The translations under genes were made by a program, and so were the position numbers. Below are positions 42,178 to 48,045 of a DNA stretch of 64,000 nt, piece by piece. The DNA comes from Candidatus Uhrbacteria bacterium (GTDB lineage: Bacteria > Patescibacteriota > Patescibacteriia > GWA2-47-26): positions 128,856 through 192,855 of the forward strand of contig JACPJN010000006.1 in NCBI GenBank assembly GCA_016187515.1. Reading direction: 5' to 3'. The notes under the pieces were generated by a model. The model made no database searches. It saw only the letters and a program-made list of their open reading frames with translations, and was not told the DNA's origin. How positions within the stretch are numbered: position 1 is the first letter of the stretch; each line of letters starts with the position of its first letter.

Positions 42178-42963
42178 GTACCCTGAAAACCGGATGATCG
42201 CCCCCACACCTATCAGACACAGTGACGCACAGCGTCAAAACAGGACCTAGGTATACAGGTGTTGATGAAAAGCATCGTTTGCCAGTTGAACAAGACAGAC
42301 TTGCTTACTAGTGTCTGAAAGGTGTGGGGGAGGAAAGTCCGAACACCCCAACCAGTGCTTCGCACTGGAAATTCCAAGCACCAAGCACCAAATACCAAAA
42401 AAATCCCAAACTAAAAATTCCAAATCACAAACTTGGAATTTGGGATTTGGAGATTGAATATTGTCTGGAATTTGGAAATTGTGATTTGGGATTTCCAGCG
42501 CGGAGCGCTGGCGGAAGTAGGTACCAGCTAACGGCTGGGCATCCTGCTCGGCATAACACATAAAGCCGGCTGACGGATTAGTGCCACAGAGACAATACTA
42601 CCCCCACACCTATCAGACACTTTGGCGCGAAGCGCCACAAGAGCCTAACCATACGGAAGTTCTTGCTGAATACAACTGCCAGTCGAATAAGACAGGATGT
42701 GCATGTACAAGGTGCCTGAAAGGTGTGGGGGGAAAGGTGAAAAGTGAGGTGGTGTTTATCGCTTAATTCCACTCTAAAGGTGGCGTAAACGAGGAAGCTA
42801 CACCTCTTGCTCCCGAGTAATCGGGATGCGTGGAAAACCCTACCTGGTGCAAGTCGTATAACCGACGCATGAGGCCCCGCGTAAGCGGGGTCCCAGAGAG
42901 ATGATCATCCAGTCCCGCGGACGCGGGACGGACAGAATTCGGCTTACAGGTTTTCTTGGTACG
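42178..42963 (+). ncRNA. rnpB: RNase P RNA (bacterial type A core) with greatly expanded P3, P5.1-region and P12 helices (about 786 nt)
   Basis: CR-I GGAGGAAAGTCCGAACACC is at 42329. A P5.1-like UUCG hairpin ccagtgcttcgcactgg follows. Then CCAGCTAACGGCTGGG (a P8-like GNRA-type hairpin). Then AGTGCCACAGAGACAATAC (cf. E. coli AGUGCAACAGAGAGCAAAC). Then a CR-II-like GGTGAAAAGTGAGGTGG. CR-V ACAGAATTCGGCTTA is at 42932. P1/P2 pairing joins 5' GTACC/GAAAACC with 3' GGTTTTC/GGTAC. The expansions are 42201-42330 (P3 position), 42365-42500 and 42601-42731 (P12 position). Confidence 0.65.
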
Positions 42964-42969
42964 CAAAAA

Positions 42970-42996
42970 GACCCCGCAATCGCGGGGTCTTTTTTA
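42970..42996 (+). terminator. Rho-independent terminator of rnpB
   Basis: gaccccgcaatcgcggggtc followed by ttttttaat. Confidence 0.8.
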
Positions 42997-43006
42997 ATCG
43001 TTAAAA

Positions 43007-43321
43007 TTATTTTTCTCGCGCGCCTGCGCGGCGTGCGGCGTATCCGGAAAGCCGGGCTTGTAAAATTTCTCTGCGATCTTTTGCCTGTCGTAATTTATCC
43101 TCAACTTCTGCCAAATGGGCGGCGGCAACTTTTGTAACATCCCCTTGTTCTCTCCCGCGAATATTCGGACTCATTGGTTGCGGTTGCATCATGCGCTCCA
43201 AATTGAGAATTTCCTGTTCAACTCGCGCCAACTCATCCGCCACGCGCGCTTCAGCTTCATCCTCACTCATGCCTCCCCCCTCTACACTCATTACTTTTAG
43301 ATCGCGAGGTGTTTCACCCAT
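43007..43321 (-). CDS. hypothetical coiled-coil protein (104 aa)
   Basis: Charged, helical composition. Downstream partner of 43457..44122. Confidence 0.4.
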   Translation of the reverse strand: MGETPRDLKVMSVEGGGMSEDEAEARVADELARVEQEILNLERMMQPQPMSPNIRGREQGDVTKVAAAHLAEVEDKLRQAKDRREILQARLSGYAARRAGAREK

Positions 43322-43456
43322 AAATATGAAGTTTATGTCTTATGTTTGCATCTTATCAAATATCCGCTAAATTGTCAAATTAAAGCATCCCTACCGGTTT
43401 CCTTGGTACAATAAAATAACGGCCTTCATGGCCGCTATTTTCATTCTACCTATGAT

Positions 43457-44122
43457 CTATGATATGGTGGCCCGCACTACCCCACGCTGTCTGATCGTTC
43501 CGTCTTCATTCAAAACGGCGGCCTTCACTAAGTCCACGGTTTCGGCCATCAGATGGGGCGAACCACTTTCTTCCGCAAAAAATGCTGCCATGTTCGAATA
43601 CAAGGAATGTAGGGGTACGGCAAATTCTATCTTTCCTCTATCTGGTTGACGAACCGTAACCACCAGCACACCCGGATTATCCCCATGCACCCTGGTGCCC
43701 AAGAAATCCTGTCCCAAAGCTGACTTGAGATACGCATCCAACTTTTTGGGATCATTACGATTTATTCCACCTCTCTCATTGTAAAATGCTCTCCAACCCT
43801 GAAGTAATGCGACGGGAGTTAACACTTCTGCTGGGGGTCGTTCTGGGGGGCGTACTGAAGCAATTCCACTTCTCTCGGCAGGAGGACCGACGGCGAGCGG
43901 CTTGCGAAGATTGTTTAGTATTTGCTCGACACCGTCCCTCACTACCTGTTCTGGTATTTTGCTTAAATCCACCTTAAATAATCGTGCAAAATCATCCCTG
44001 ACCATTCTAACTAATCCTTTAAGCGCCTTTTCCGTCTCCGCCGGACTTGGTTCTGTTTCGCCGACCGGTAACGTATCTTGTTTTATTTCGGGCAGTGGAC
44101 CACCTGATCTTTCGGTTCGCAT
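43457..44122 (-). CDS. hypothetical protein, paralog of 46130..46741 (GWRAF(F/Y)NE..G ... VPLHSLYSN family)
   Basis: Shares LQGWRAFYNERGG...DPKKLD...G....V.....R..IEFAVPLHSLYSNMAAFF with the 46130 product. No known family recognised. Confidence 0.5.
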   Translation of the reverse strand: MRTERSGGPLPEIKQDTLPVGETEPSPAETEKALKGLVRMVRDDFARLFKVDLSKIPEQVVRDGVEQILNNLRKPLAVGPPAERSGIASVRPPERPPAEVLTPVALLQGWRAFYNERGGINRNDPKKLDAYLKSALGQDFLGTRVHGDNPGVLVVTVRQPDRGKIEFAVPLHSLYSNMAAFFAEESGSPHLMAETVDLVKAAVLNEDGTIRQRGVVRATIS

Positions 44123-44327
44123 AAAATTTAGGCAATTACTACTTATACCCTAATAGCACTCTTTCTCTAAAAAAGTCAAAGGGAAGTGAGTTCTGCTTGC
44201 GCCAACTCCGCTTGCGCTTTATTTTGGGCTGCTTTTGCTTCACGCGCGGCGGCAAGTTTTTCTTTTGGTGATGGGCGTTCTGTCATATATTGTCGCTCCT
44301 ATTCAGGTTATCGAAATATCGTGGTTA

Positions 44328-44573
44328 TTAGGTACTGGCCATGCTTAACCGCATCTCAATCTTGCCCACCCGCTCCTCAACCCGATCTACTTTTGAACGC
44401 AACGCGACCAGTTCCAAATCCAACGTCTCGTGAAGTTTTATGAATCCGTCAATATGGGTCAACATGCGATCTTCGGATGCTTGCATCTCTTCCTTAGTGG
44501 CGGTATGCTCACGCACATAGACATCCAGATCTATGAGTTTGATCAGTATCTTATTTAGTAATTCTTCAGACAT
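44328..44573 (-). CDS. hypothetical small coiled-coil protein (81 aa)
   Basis: Heptad-like charged sequence. No family recognised. Confidence 0.35.
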   Translation of the reverse strand: MSEELLNKILIKLIDLDVYVREHTATKEEMQASEDRMLTHIDGFIKLHETLDLELVALRSKVDRVEERVGKIEMRLSMAST

Positions 44574-44608
44574 AGGTTTACTTATTTCACTTTTATCATA
44601 TCATCCCT

Positions 44609-44695
44609 CATGTTTTTAGACAAGCCCCATCTTCTTCTTGACCTCCTGAGGGGTTTTTTGTGCCAGTGGTCGGGCGCGGCGCCGGATGTAATTAT
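44609..44695 (-). pseudogene. degenerate duplicate of the trpS 3' terminus (encodes IGYNYIRRRARPLAQKTPQEVKKKMGLV*)
   Basis: Compare genuine TrpS C-terminus KKARPIAQKTLEEVKKKMGLT*. The DNA is also similar: gacaagccccatcttcttcttgacctcctgaggggttttttg versus gtcaaccccatttttttcttcacctcctcaagagttttttg. Confidence 0.7.
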
Positions 44696-44970
44696 ATCCG
44701 ATCCATGTATCGGTAAATCCAATGGTGTGGTCCGACAGTCAAAAAATAGATAGTAGTCGTATCCTTAAAACGGAACAATACTCGATAATTTTCGTCAATA
44801 CGGAAACTCCACACCTCTTTAGCTTTAGGGTGGAGTTTTTCGGTATCCAGAGAAGTATGAAACGGATTGGCACGGAATAACGTTTCCCGCCGTTCTGCTT
44901 TCTTTTGAATGTGGAGTGGCAATTCCGAGTAGCGGCGCTCAAATTCCTCCGTATAGAAAATTGTAATCAC
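44692..44970 (-). CDS. RelE/ParE-family type II toxin
   Basis: KLHPKAKEVWSFRIDENYRVLFRFKDTTTIYFLTVGPHH matches the RelE/ParE core pattern (R..YR...R.....I.....GPH..Y). Preceded by a small antitoxin-size gene. Confidence 0.6.
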   Translation of the reverse strand: MITIFYTEEFERRYSELPLHIQKKAERRETLFRANPFHTSLDTEKLHPKAKEVWSFRIDENYRVLFRFKDTTTIYFLTVGPHHWIYRYMDRI

Positions 44971-44980
44971 ACGGCTACGG

Positions 44981-45187
44981 CTACGCGCGAAGATCGCGGA
45001 GACTTTTTAGCTTTCTGACTCGGCCAGCGCGAATATCTGCCTCCGCACGATCAATACTGGCAATAAATTCATTGCCAAAAAACCCCAAAGAATCAGCCAA
45101 TCGCTCAAAACCATGACGATCCATTTCCACAGAAATCTTTCTGGGGGTTTTCTGAATAATCGTAAGGGGTAGGGTGGTAGTGCTCAT
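44981..45187 (-). CDS. antitoxin partner of RelE/ParE toxin (68 aa)
   Basis: Small gene 11 nt upstream of the toxin gene on the same strand. Confidence 0.5.
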   Translation of the reverse strand: MSTTTLPLTIIQKTPRKISVEMDRHGFERLADSLGFFGNEFIASIDRAEADIRAGRVRKLKSLRDLRA

Positions 45188-45253
45188 ATTCTAACTACAG
45201 CGTATCACGCCATGCTTATGATGTCAACCCCGTAGTGAAAGTGCCGAACTTCT

Positions 45254-45300
45254 ACTACAGGGTCAATCCCATTTTCTTTTTCACCTCTGTCTTTTTTGGC
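45254..45300 (-). pseudogene. second degenerate duplicate of the trpS 3' terminus (encodes ...KKTEVKKKMGLTL*)
   Basis: gtcaatcccattttctttttcacctctgtcttttttgg aligns to the genuine trpS end at 46804-46850. Confidence 0.65.
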
Positions 45301-45316
45301 GGTAGATTTTTAGCAT

Positions 45317-46087
45317 TCATCCGCCGATCTCTTTGAGCAATCGAATAACGTCATTTCTAAGTCCGACATACTCTTCGTACGCGTTTTCATATGGCTGCAA
45401 TTCTGGTGACCGTTCAAAAGATTCCGGTTTCCTAGCTCGTCTAATCGACTTTTCTTTTGCAAGCGCTTCAACTTGTGGTTCGAGTGCGCGTAAACGCTCT
45501 AGAGCGGAAGAAAGCTCGCTCTGTAAAGTTGCCAGCTTCTCCGGAGACATATCTCCACGATTTTGTATAATCTCGTCGAGTTGTTCTCCCCGTAAACTTA
45601 CCTCTCCACTAGCTCGCATTTTCTTAACATCCTCAGAAGAAAGCTCGCCTTTCAATGCTGCAAGTACTTGCTCAGTGGTCCGTATATGGTCACGTTTAAA
45701 CGAGTCACCCGCTTGCTCCCACTGGGTCTGGAGATATTCTATATCTTCTGGCTTGTCCGGCGCCTTAAAAGCATGGTATGCCCATGTTCTCGCCCTATCT
45801 CGCAATGCTTCCATGCCTACTTTCGTGTCGAGATCGCTGGACTTGTCCTCGCGCCCCACCACCGCCGCCTTCATTTGTGCTTGCAGTTGTTTGCCTTCCT
45901 CCGATACTTGCCGTAAGAATTTTATATGGTCCGATACTCCGGGAGATTTTTTAAGTTCTTCCATAGCCCATTGATCACGGCCCCTAAAATCCCTCCGCAC
46001 TTCTTCCATGGTGCGCTCTGCGCGCTGTCCAACCATCTCTTGTTCTGCACGTTTTTGCATGCGCTCTTGGTCTTCAGGTCTTGACAT
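45317..46087 (-). CDS. hypothetical coiled-coil protein (256 aa)
   Basis: Highly charged with a predicted long helix. Downstream partner of 46130..46741. Confidence 0.4.
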   Translation of the reverse strand: MSRPEDQERMQKRAEQEMVGQRAERTMEEVRRDFRGRDQWAMEELKKSPGVSDHIKFLRQVSEEGKQLQAQMKAAVVGREDKSSDLDTKVGMEALRDRARTWAYHAFKAPDKPEDIEYLQTQWEQAGDSFKRDHIRTTEQVLAALKGELSSEDVKKMRASGEVSLRGEQLDEIIQNRGDMSPEKLATLQSELSSALERLRALEPQVEALAKEKSIRRARKPESFERSPELQPYENAYEEYVGLRNDVIRLLKEIGG

Positions 46088-46129
46088 AATTTTAGAGATT
46101 AAATTTTAACTCCCTACTTTCGCCTTTTT

Positions 46130-46741
46130 TCAGTGCACGCTGACCCTAACAAGCCCTCTCTTTTTAACTTCCCCATCCTCAAATTCCGCGGCCTCAAGTA
46201 AATCGTCAACTTCAGCTAACATTAGATTTGTTTTATCGTCTGCCTCAAAATGACTAGCAAAATTGGAATATAAGCTGTGGAGTGGCACTCCAAATATCCT
46301 CATCCTCTGACCCACGCGAACTTGTATTTGGGCAACACCAGGTTGACTATAATCCGGCCGAATACTAACCAAACGATCTCCCAATTTGCTCCGTAGTTCT
46401 TGCTCCAATTTTTTAATATCATTTTGATACCGTCCTTTTTCTGCATTAAAGAACGCTCGCCATCCTGTAAGAATCTCCGTTGGGGTACCTGCTTCTACGG
46501 ATTCGCGGACCTCAGCAGTGCTCCCACCTACATTTCCCAGCTTCGGCATTGTTTCCGTGCGCTTTCCTGAGCTAGCGCGTAACTGGGTCATCATTTCTGC
46601 TAGGCCGCGCTTAATTATCTCGTCTGGAATTGCGTCGTTCGGAATCCCCGCATTCATCGCGAGATACGAACGAATACTCTCCGTGGCTCTACCGCGGAGT
46701 TCTTCAATATAAGCGTCCTCTCCCTCCCTATGTTCTAACAT
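46130..46741 (-). CDS. hypothetical protein, paralog of 43457..44122
   Basis: LTGWRAFFNAEKGRYQNDIKKLEQELRSKLGDRLVSIRPDYSQPGVAQIQVRVGQRMRIFGVPLHSLYSNFASHF. See the paralog for details. Confidence 0.5.
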   Translation of the reverse strand: MLEHREGEDAYIEELRGRATESIRSYLAMNAGIPNDAIPDEIIKRGLAEMMTQLRASSGKRTETMPKLGNVGGSTAEVRESVEAGTPTEILTGWRAFFNAEKGRYQNDIKKLEQELRSKLGDRLVSIRPDYSQPGVAQIQVRVGQRMRIFGVPLHSLYSNFASHFEADDKTNLMLAEVDDLLEAAEFEDGEVKKRGLVRVSVH

Positions 46742-46803
46742 ATGTGGTTATGACTCATTAATTCAGTGTGGATGATTCAGTTGAATATACCAGCTTACCT
46801 TGC

Positions 46804-47862
46804 CTATGTCAACCCCATTTTTTTCTTCACCTCCTCAAGAGTTTTTTGAGCAATGGGACGAGCTTTTTTTGAACCGGCGTCAAGTACTTCTTCCACGTAT
46901 CCTTTCTTCTTCTCCAGTTCGCGACGGCGTTTTTGGATTGGCTCTAAAAATTTCACTACCGCTTCGGCAAGTCCCGCTTTAAACTCGGCATATCCTTTAC
47001 CCGCGTATTGTTTTTCAAGTTTAGAAATTGGCAGACCGGAAACTTCCGAGTAAATCGTAAGTAAATTGGTTAGCGCGGGTTTGTCGTTTCCGGATTTGAT
47101 CTCGCGGCCGGAATCGGTAACCGCGGTTTTTATTTTCTGCCGCACCTCATCCGAACTATCGGAAAGCGCAACGCCTTCATCACCTGTTTTGGACATTTTC
47201 TTTTTCGGATCTTTGAGCGACATGATGCGCGCGCCGTGTGTGAGCTCGGCTTTGACTGGAGGGAAAAACCCAGTGCTGTCATCCTGAGGAGTGGAACGAC
47301 GAAGGATCCCGTCCCTACTTCCACGGGATTCTTCGCTGCGCTCAGAATGACGAGATGGGGAAGCGAACATCCGATTAAACCGCCTCGCGATCATGTTCGT
47401 AAGTTCAATATGCGGAAGCTGATCCTCGCCAACCGGTACCAGATCGGCTTTGTAAATCAAAATGTCGGCGGCCATCAGCGCCGGATAGGCCAAAAGCCCC
47501 AAATTCACATATTCCGGGTGTTGCACGATTTTTTCTTTGTAGGTGGGCACGCGCTCAAACCAGGAAACCGGACTGATGGATTGAAAAATCCAGCCCAACT
47601 CCACATGCTCCGGCACCTGGGATTGCACGATAAGCGTCGCGCGCTTGGGATCAAGCCCGACCGCCAAATAATCCAGCGCCACCTCGCGCACATTTTCCCG
47701 CAGCTCCTCCGGCGAAAAAGGCGTGGTAATTGCGTGATAATCCACGATTGCATATATACAATCGTGCTTTTCTTGAAGCGTAATCCAATTTTTGATCGCG
47801 CCCAAATAGTTGCCGAGGTGCAGTCGGCCTGATGGGCGGATGCCGGAGAAAACACGGGTCAT
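46804..47862 (-). CDS. trpS: tryptophan--tRNA ligase
   Basis: HIGH region SGIRPSGRLHLGNYLG and KMSKS region KKMSKTGD. Contains a roughly 33-aa in-frame insertion (SPSRHSERSEESRGSRDGILRRSTPQDDSTGFF) encoded by a palindromic element at 47268-47345. Confidence 0.9.
   Translation of the reverse strand: MTRVFSGIRPSGRLHLGNYLGAIKNWITLQEKHDCIYAIVDYHAITTPFSPEELRENVREVALDYLAVGLDPKRATLIVQSQVPEHVELGWIFQSISPVSWFERVPTYKEKIVQHPEYVNLGLLAYPALMAADILIYKADLVPVGEDQLPHIELTNMIARRFNRMFASPSRHSERSEESRGSRDGILRRSTPQDDSTGFFPPVKAELTHGARIMSLKDPKKKMSKTGDEGVALSDSSDEVRQKIKTAVTDSGREIKSGNDKPALTNLLTIYSEVSGLPISKLEKQYAGKGYAEFKAGLAEAVVKFLEPIQKRRRELEKKKGYVEEVLDAGSKKARPIAQKTLEEVKKKMGLT
47268..47345. repeat. second palindromic insertion family (gtcatcctgag ... 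ctcagaatgac) in-frame in trpS
   Basis: Inverted termini gtcatcctgagg / cgctgcgctcagaatgac. A half-copy gtcatcccgagcgcagcgagggatc lies at 335-360 upstream of dprA. Confidence 0.55.
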
Positions 47863-47864
47863 AG

Positions 47865-48045
47865 ATTACAAATTGATAATTATTCTAATTATCCTAATTG
47901 ATCTAATTATTCTAAACAATGTCCAAGCACCTCACGCCCAAGGCGGATGCGCCTGAGGCGCAAAATCCCAATTTTGGTTATTGGATGTTGGGATTTGTTT
48001 AGGTCAATTAGAGTAATTAGGTGAATTAGGTCAATTCTCATTATA
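47865..48045. repeat. AATTAG-word low-complexity hairpin with a GC-rich loop insert; same family as 17913-18000
   Basis: ctaattatcctaattgatctaattattctaaac ... gcgcctgaggcgc ... ttgggatttgtttaggtcaattagagtaattaggtgaattagg. Confidence 0.55.

Follow-up and report, generated by a model that had tools for sequence, protein, structure and literature searches.

Genes and cassettes between trpS and rnpB

The DNA analysed in this study was a 64-kb window from the genome of Candidatus Uhrbacteria, which belongs to the candidate phyla radiation (CPR), and its subject is a pair of genes encoding related proteins of 203 and 221 amino acids (aa). Both genes lie in an island between the tryptophanyl-tRNA synthetase (TrpRS) gene trpS (46804-47862, minus strand; Pfam tRNA-synt_1b, E = 4e-66) and the RNase P RNA gene rnpB (42446-42962, plus strand; Rfam RF00010, 106.9 bits, E = 1e-31). 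The two bordering genes are convergent, rnpB bounding the island on the left, and every gene in the interval is on the minus strand. Going away from trpS, these genes encode products of 203, 256, 68, 92, 81, 36, 221, and 104 aa. The 203-aa protein gene (HYW17_02000, 46130-46741) is an intact open reading frame (ORF) whose product has a Candidatus Uhrbacteria hypothetical protein as its exact database match, and the next ORF (45317-46087) encodes an acidic orphan protein of 256 aa, 38% of whose residues are charged. A gene for a putative antitoxin of 68 aa (44981-45187) lies upstream of that for a 92-aa RelE/HigB-like toxin (44692-44970; Pfam HigB-like_toxin, 28.1 bits against a cut-off of 27), which also had matches to ParE-family Pfam models, all of them sub-threshold. 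An 81-aa heptad coiled-coil protein (44328-44573) and the 36-aa ORF (44176-44286) are encoded upstream of, and co-oriented with, the 221-aa paralogue (HYW17_01975, 43457-44122), which is also an intact ORF, and the genes of the two paralogues thus flank the toxin and 68-aa genes. The last ORF (43007-43321), for a charged protein of 104 aa, is located between the true 3' end of rnpB and a remnant of that end.

The 3' end of trpS (the last ca. 20 codons) was present three times on the minus strand of the window (repeat families D1-D3). Copy 1 (46804-46866) is the one in use, and its translation ends in KARPIAQKTLEEVKKKMGLT and stop. Copy 2 (45255-45300; PPKKTEVKKKMGLTL and stop) is a remnant with 88% identity over 26 nt and marks the distal boundary of the cassette containing the 203-aa and 256-aa genes, and copy 3 (44616-44678; RARPLAQKTPQEVKKKMGLV and stop) is a remnant in which 15 of 20 residues are kept in frame. 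Third codon positions held 13 of the 21 nucleotide differences in copy 3 (P = 0.007) and all four of the differences across nine codons in copy 2. Because of this bias, the remnants are taken to be former coding ends that diverged while they were coding. Such a footprint is to be expected when elements insert at a gene's 3' end and supply a replacement for it. A comparable remnant of the rnpB 3' end (TACCGGTTTCCTTGGTAC; ca. 20 nt, followed by a GC hairpin and a T-run) occupies 43392-43434. Its layout is that of the true rnpB end with its terminator (42945-42990), although the stem differs in sequence, and the 104-aa gene is enclosed by the true and remnant ends, an arrangement suggesting that a cassette was inserted at the 3' end of rnpB as well. 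On the trpS side, remnants 2 and 3 enclose the RelE/HigB-like pair (44692-45187) as a cassette of its own, while cassettes 1 and 3 carry one paralogue each. The cassettes are only 0.4 to 1.6 kb in size.

Promoter-like sequences, all on the minus strand, were found at three of these junctions. The 203-aa and 256-aa genes are preceded by TTGACA-17-TATATT (46784-46812; 11 of 12 matches, with a TG extension), the -35 hexamer of which lies within the last trpS codons. A weaker site, TTGTCT-17-TATGAT (44623 to 44595), is located in trpS copy 3 ahead of the 81-, 36-, and 221-aa genes, and TTGACA-17-TAAGAT (43378 to 43350) lies beside the rnpB remnant ahead of the 104-aa gene. The GC content of the foreign-looking island (42963-46803) was 0.465, as against a mean of 0.539 (standard deviation, 0.030) elsewhere, and was the lowest of all windows of the same length in the 64 kb. 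No recombinase or integrase family matched any island gene product of at least 68 aa. An earlier interpretation of this DNA, made from the letters alone and hereafter called the sequence-only reading, had placed the paralogues in a trpS accretion island next to a RelE-type pair, and this was borne out by the minimum in GC content, the threefold trpS end, and the above-cut-off score of the toxin.

These observations argue, with fair confidence, for the accretion, in tandem, of decayed elements lacking an integrase at the trpS and rnpB 3' ends. It is well established that a target gene can gather such elements at its 3' end, where integrated elements decay into cis-mobilizable elements (CIMEs; PMC5704250). 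As in the case of CIMEs, a series of small units without an integrase is bounded by direct repeats of the target 3' end, the repeats diverge as coding sequence, and the island is richer in AT than its surroundings. Unlike the described CIMEs, the units here are only 0.4 to 1.6 kb in a CPR host, two targets (a protein gene and rnpB) face each other, and neither an integrase nor an excision product nor an empty site was observed.

The gene neighbourhoods of the two paralogues differ. The 256-aa gene begins 42 nt past the 203-aa gene in an operon-like arrangement, and the two are probably co-transcribed. Between the 221-aa and 104-aa genes, by comparison, lie the rnpB 3'-end remnant with its hairpin (43392-43434) and the predicted promoter of the 104-aa gene, and the 221-aa gene appears to be co-transcribed with the 81-aa coiled-coil gene and the 36-aa ORF upstream of it. 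The 256-aa protein showed no homology with either the 104-aa protein (E = 0.72) or the 81-aa protein (E = 2.2). The proposal of a duplicated two-gene module, in which each paralogue is followed by a highly charged coiled-coil partner, therefore failed, since the partners are unrelated and sit in different cassettes. The high charge of the 256-aa and 104-aa proteins (37-38%) was correct; the coiled coil was not confirmed, neither protein giving a strong heptad signal, and the 104-aa gene is set apart from the 221-aa gene. A crude heptad test revealed a clear heptad pattern in the 81-aa protein only.

A rare C-terminal domain family

The 203-aa and 221-aa proteins shared 36% identity over 169 aa (BLASTP, E = 1e-32). 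This similarity is far beyond chance, and we regard the paralogy as real with high confidence. In both proteins a short helical N-terminus is connected by a flexible linker to a compact C-terminal domain of ca. 115 aa: in the 203-aa protein, the regions are a helical hairpin (residues ca. 3-58), a linker modelled with low confidence (59-85), and the domain (ca. 86-203; nt 46133-46486), and in the 221-aa protein the domain comprises residues ca. 102-221 (nt 43460-43819). GWRAF and VPLHSLYSN are identical in the two paralogues. Of the motif GWRAF(F/Y)NE noted previously, GWRAF was thus accurate and the NE was slightly off, the actual sequences being FFNAEKG in the 203-aa protein and FYNERGG in the 221-aa protein.

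An exhaustive HMMER search with a two-paralogue profile identified 12 real relatives (P0004-P0015) among 1.84 billion representative proteins. The output at E <= 0.001 consisted of 15 proteins, namely these 12, the two paralogues, and P0003, a low-complexity repeat protein of 2162 aa with 12 matched stretches, which was dropped as spurious. All 12 relatives aligned solely at the C-terminal ca. 115 aa. Searches for related loci were seeded with a four-sequence subset of the domain alignment, and an additional independent member was identified in locus L008 (4e-27 against the family profile). Word-index homologue searches returned only the queries and P0015. Since these searches missed the other paralogue (pairwise E = 1e-32) despite a common 9-residue word, a negative result from them says nothing about whether homologues exist.

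In the 15-sequence domain alignment, only W13, G22, P72, G115, and V117 were invariant or nearly so, and the family signature is roughly W..FF...GG.YKGD...L...HP...AVV...G...VPL...Y.NV..FF. The alignment contained no conserved catalytic or polar residue across its length and no active-site signature. H155, Y158, and S159 of VPLHSLYSN vary across the family, and an interpretation of this motif as belonging to a recombinase or an HUH-type enzyme was rejected because H, Y, and S are not conserved.

The AlphaFold2 model of the domain, built from the family alignment, was confident (pLDDT 92.3, pTM 0.87) and consisted of two helices followed by about eight strands. A full-length model from the two paralogue sequences was poor (pLDDT 52) and was excluded from the fold search. 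No match to the domain model was obtained by Foldseek in the PDB (best E = 0.22, TM-score 0.35) or BFVD; the top-ranked entries, which were the ExoY cyclase domain, OB-fold tRNA-binding domains, and SSB, had TM-scores of 0.2-0.35 and were regarded as noise. Searches of PDB sequences with the paralogues and the domain profile gave nothing significant. The 203-, 221-, 256-, 104-, and 81-aa proteins had no match in Pfam, NCBIfam, PHROGs, or PADLOC apart from a chance-level PADLOC match of the 104-aa protein, and weak Pfam matches (BAR, DUF6671, UBX, and others) were rejected as each occurred in a single member and was common to no other. Relatives of the domain were absent from the phage, plasmid, and IMG/VR collections. 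The view that the paralogues cannot be assigned to any family thus held in the four family databases as well as in the Foldseek comparison with PDB and BFVD, and we conclude with high confidence that the domain represents a new, very rare family described in no database.

Each paralogue is the nearest relative of the other in all public data searched, with 40% identity in the domain as against at most 28% to the other members. Their third codon positions are nonetheless saturated (34% identity). Both ORFs are intact and all family-conserved positions are kept despite this synonymous saturation, which points to long purifying selection on both copies. The third positions of the paralogues are saturated while the non-functional gene-end remnants around them are still legible; it is therefore most likely that the paralogues diverged anciently and elsewhere and were then united at the trpS/rnpB hotspot, rather than arising by local duplication. 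An in-place tandem duplication of the trpS end together with a domain gene is unlikely, because the genes are ordered differently, their partners are unrelated, and saturation of the paralogues contrasts with trpS remnants that are still recognisable and differ mainly at positions of the synonymous type.

Relatives of the domain and the giant-protein operon

Thirteen homologues outside the window were available (the 12 clusters and the L008 member). By visual inspection, nine of them (P0004-6, P0008, P0010, P0011, P0013, P0014, and the L008 member) consisted of a signal peptide or transmembrane segment, a coiled coil, a proline-rich linker, and the domain as a C-terminal head. At all eight independent loci with upstream sequence (L007, L008, L009/10, L016-19, L020, L021, L022/23, and L024), a homologous gene encoding 1471-1783 aa, or its C-terminal fragment, was located directly upstream of the gene of the relative; the ninth anchored member, P0004, is on a 1.6-kb contig without usable upstream sequence. 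The stop codon of the giant gene and the start codon of the relative often overlap. Downstream of the relative, a small protein of ca. 90-280 aa is encoded, followed by a homologous lipoprotein of 417-489 aa that contains DxSxS (at residues 52-73) at seven of the seven loci with enough downstream sequence. These lipoproteins had no vWA match in Pfam. A divergently oriented neighbour is OmpA/MotB-like (E = 2e-5, just short of the cut-off). The operon coordinates are L007:2674-10005, L008:2458-10699, L009:1930-10425, L016:3211-11123, L020:1323-8703, and L024:2556-9641. L007 and L008 are labelled as Proteobacteria-type metagenome-assembled genomes, and the other operon contigs are unclassified metagenome sequences.

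The giant proteins are 28-40% identical over about 1,500 residues. They contain an N-terminal FtsZ/tubulin-like GGTGAG loop and C-terminal Hsp70-like motifs (DFG…, DLGGGS.D, and FGG.D). None of the operon proteins reached a Pfam threshold; the N-termini of the giant proteins had sub-threshold matches to Tubulin_2 in three of four cases and to Tubulin in four of four (best E = 0.007-0.05; 12-16 bits against cut-offs of 27-33), which were their only consistent Pfam matches, one of them also showing a weak match to DUF4734. When the motifs were compared by hhalign with hand-entered templates, the loop GS.VGGTGAGCLP was placed on the FtsZ T4 loop (E = 0.01, probability 4%) and VADLGGGSLD on the phosphate-2 motif of DnaK (E = 0.002, probability 14%). 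FtsZ appeared in a PDB profile search with a giant protein at E = 0.29. Two other systems with both Hsp70-like and vWA components, CoCoNuT and TerY-P, were set aside because their architecture is different.

The soluble relatives occur in other contexts. P0007 (1502 aa) consists mostly of 1,370 aa of charged, probably helical sequence that ends in the head, and its gene is flanked by those of phosphoglycerate mutase (iPGM) and enolase. P0012 contains two heads in tandem and is encoded between a PEGA protein gene and murA, and P0015 is on a 774-bp contig. P0009 in locus L012 adjoins a pair consisting of a RelE-like toxin and a small antitoxin (L012:4650-5122); the L012 toxin is 30% identical to that of the window (E = 1e-14), and the antitoxins are unrelated. 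The tandem in P0012 and the dimer-prone stalks of the anchored relatives suggest that the head acts as a pair.

Possible function of the head and competing explanations

Based on these results, we propose that the domain is a non-enzymatic docking or adaptor head, which in the window is soluble and is carried as cargo of integrase-less cassettes at the 3' ends of trpS and rnpB. The chances of this combined reading being right are, in our estimation, about even, and the docking function in particular is put forward with modest confidence. The head would serve as a protein-docking module rather than as an enzyme. In most relatives, it would be held on the cytoplasmic side by a membrane anchor followed by a coiled-coil stalk and a proline-rich linker; according to the positive-inside rule, it should be cytoplasmic, like the giant protein. 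The Uhrbacteria head is predicted to be soluble, and any stalk or partner would have to be supplied in trans. Judged by gene position, possible candidates for this role are the charged helical proteins that appear to be co-transcribed, of 256 aa for the 203-aa gene and of 81 aa for the 221-aa gene. Small integrase-less cassettes would have accumulated at the convergent trpS and rnpB ends through successive site-specific insertions, each of which would have brought a copy of the end of its target gene, with a promoter-like site at trpS copies 1 and 3. The meeting of the paralogues at this hotspot would then probably be secondary, with no duplication of a two-gene unit on the spot.

The proteins ZipA and SepF tether FtsZ to the membrane. 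Judged by eye, the anchored relatives resemble them in overall build: an N-terminal membrane anchor leads through a charged or coiled-coil segment and a proline-rich linker to a small alpha/beta head at the C-terminus. Their genes adjoin one that encodes an FtsZ/tubulin-type GGTGAG loop. Unlike ZipA and SepF, however, the head has no similarity in sequence or by Foldseek to any PDB chain and hence none to the solved ZipA and SepF structures, the window proteins lack an anchor, and the giant neighbour of the relatives is not a canonical FtsZ. A second parallel is provided by the operons encoding FtsZl1 (Pfam Tubulin_2), a vWA protein, and an OmpA protein, which were proposed to be membrane-remodelling systems and were noted to include transmembrane proteins that are lineage-specific and have no recognisable domain (Makarova and Koonin 2010, PMC2875224). 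The operons of the relatives likewise encode a protein with an FtsZ-like motif, a DxSxS (MIDAS-like) lipoprotein, and an OmpA/MotB-like protein, together with lineage-specific transmembrane proteins of this kind. They differ in that their Pfam matches all fall short of the curated cut-offs and in that the giant protein has C-terminal Hsp70-like motifs, whereas FtsZl1 has a coiled coil and a helical domain. Moreover, no such operon genes are located near the paralogues, whose neighbours in the window are trpS, the RelE pair, small charged proteins, and rnpB. A more specific version of the docking proposal is that the head docks to an undescribed cytoskeleton-like machine composed of a giant fusion of a tubulin/FtsZ-like GTPase with an Hsp70/actin-like ATPase, an anchored coiled-coil tether, and a periplasmic vWA-like lipoprotein, and that CPR bacteria carry soluble heads on miniature integrase-less cassettes that have their own promoter-like sequences and are directed to essential genes (trpS, rnpB) at their 3' ends. 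We consider this version doubtful; if it were true, it would imply a new fold, a new class of tether, and a new style of cassette accretion in ultra-small bacteria.

Several observations weigh against the docking proposal and its extension. The giant protein was linked to tubulin and Hsp70 only by sub-threshold matches or by motifs (hhalign probabilities of 4% and 14%), and a profile search of PDB sequences with the giant protein gave nothing significant. A tblastn search with five giant proteins found no relative of them in the window (best E = 0.024, a short fragment). The paralogues in the window have neither a membrane anchor nor a coiled coil, and no hydrophobic segment, and their 256-aa and 104-aa neighbours did not score as clear coiled coils in the crude heptad test. 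No neighbour is conserved among the soluble relatives, which leaves the proposed trans partner unsupported outside the Uhrbacteria genome; nothing similar to the small partner proteins was found in any related locus, and the 256-aa protein, which belongs to no family in the databases searched, had no relatives in phages or IMG/VR either. As for the cassettes, 10 of 10 contigs carrying the 203-aa protein showed the same arrangement, all of them from one population; neither an empty site nor a cassette polymorphism was seen among them, and no integrase was identified.

The surroundings of the paralogues had been taken as typical of defence or addiction cargo. According to this explanation, the 203/256-aa pair, and the 221-aa gene with its neighbour, would be a toxin-antitoxin, abortive-infection, or other defence cassette, serving either to keep the island in place or to ward off phage. 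An AT-rich island built of cassettes, a promoter-like site for each cassette, and a RelE/HigB-type pair between the two paralogues are what such cargo would lead one to expect, and like a type II toxin-antitoxin (TA) system of the RelE/ParE type, the 203/256-aa unit consists of two genes with their own predicted promoter, and the putatively mobile island that contains it also has a genuine RelE/HigB-like pair next to it. Unlike TA systems, however, the two proteins match no toxin or antitoxin family, are two to three times larger than typical members, have no catalytic residues, and are not paired elsewhere, the partner genes being unrelated to each other and conserved in no other locus. PADLOC-DB 2.0 returned no family for the paralogues or the 256-aa protein and only a chance-level match for the 104-aa protein (PDC-M63B, E = 0.007, 13.6 bits); Pfam, PHROGs, and NCBIfam matches were also lacking, as were conserved polar or catalytic residues in the family and relatives in the phage, plasmid, and IMG/VR collections. 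A survey of homologue neighbourhoods pointed in the same direction, since 9 of the 13 homologues outside the window belong to the conserved multi-gene operon and P0007 and P0012 lie alone between housekeeping genes. The exception is the soluble P0009 beside its RelE-like pair, with the related toxin described above; RelE-type pairs are very common in CPR genomes, though, and two co-occurrences are weak evidence. The claim of defence cargo was thus not upheld, and we consider this explanation improbable.

A comparable low probability is assigned to the possibility that the paralogues are hitch-hiking or decaying cargo without function in the host, left over from a phage, an integrative and conjugative element, or an integrative and mobilizable element that has lost its integrase. 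The decay of integrated elements into such remnants is well described (PMC5704250), the cassettes of the island are short and lack an integrase, the partners are orphans, and the family is extremely rare. Nevertheless, long purifying selection is indicated by the intact ORFs and the conserved positions kept despite synonymous saturation, the 203-aa gene is preceded by a near-consensus predicted promoter, and the domain is predicted to be well folded. The presence of a paralogue in two of the three trpS-side cassettes (1 and 3) and the mutual closeness of the paralogues in the domain (40% against at most 28%) could alternatively mean that the proteins act for the cassette that carries them, for example in DNA binding, recombination directionality, partition, or maintenance. 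This would be very unlikely, given that neither a catalytic nor a basic patch is conserved among the members, that no helix-turn-helix, recombinase, or other DNA-binding family was matched, that the 203-aa protein is acidic (pI 5.5), that most relatives are membrane-anchored and encoded in a chromosomal operon unrelated to mobility, and that the mobile-element collections (phage, plasmid, and IMG/VR) contain none of them.

Whatever the function of the docking head proposed here, the analysis defines a compact, confidently modelled domain with about a dozen relatives among 1.84 billion representatives. The family provides a handle on a conserved uncharacterised operon encoding a giant protein with tubulin-type and Hsp70-type motifs, which is relevant to research on the prokaryotic cytoskeleton, and the island is a CPR example of unusually clean footprints left by repeated insertion at the trpS and rnpB 3' ends. 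CPR mobile elements are poorly known. Although they emerged as by-products, the giant-protein operon and the coding-type footprints at trpS and rnpB are of more interest than the paralogues themselves. The novelty lies in the unassignable domain family, and no new mechanism is demonstrated; since orphan families are frequent in CPR genomes, the practical weight of the finding is moderate.

The genes that border the island have peculiarities of their own. A 20-nt motif (CCCCCACACCTATCAGACAC or its complement) occurs in four copies (42201-42220, 42311-42330, 42601-42621, and 42712-42731) that form two inverted-repeat pairs, one upstream of rnpB and the other within it. The Rfam RNase P match extends over 517 nt as against 367 positions of the model, and rnpB seems to hold an insertion of ca. 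150 nt. TrpRS contains an in-frame low-complexity insert of ca. 35 aa (SPSRHSERSEESRGSRDGILRRSTPQDDSTGFF; residues ca. 176-210, nt ca. 47235-47337) that resembles a translated repeat element and has no further copy elsewhere in the 64-kb window. Sequences rich in AAATCCCAAA and TTTGGGATTT are located in inverted orientation at the outer sides of rnpB (42397-42494) and trpS (47973-48000); the match between them is weak (28 nt, 71% complementary, 5.5 kb apart) and may be due to chance or to a common composition upstream of promoters. Directly upstream of the trpS start codon (47877-47912), four 9-nt units are arranged in tandem (TAATTATTC, TAATTATCC, TAATTGATC, and TAATTATTC), which could be a protein-binding array.

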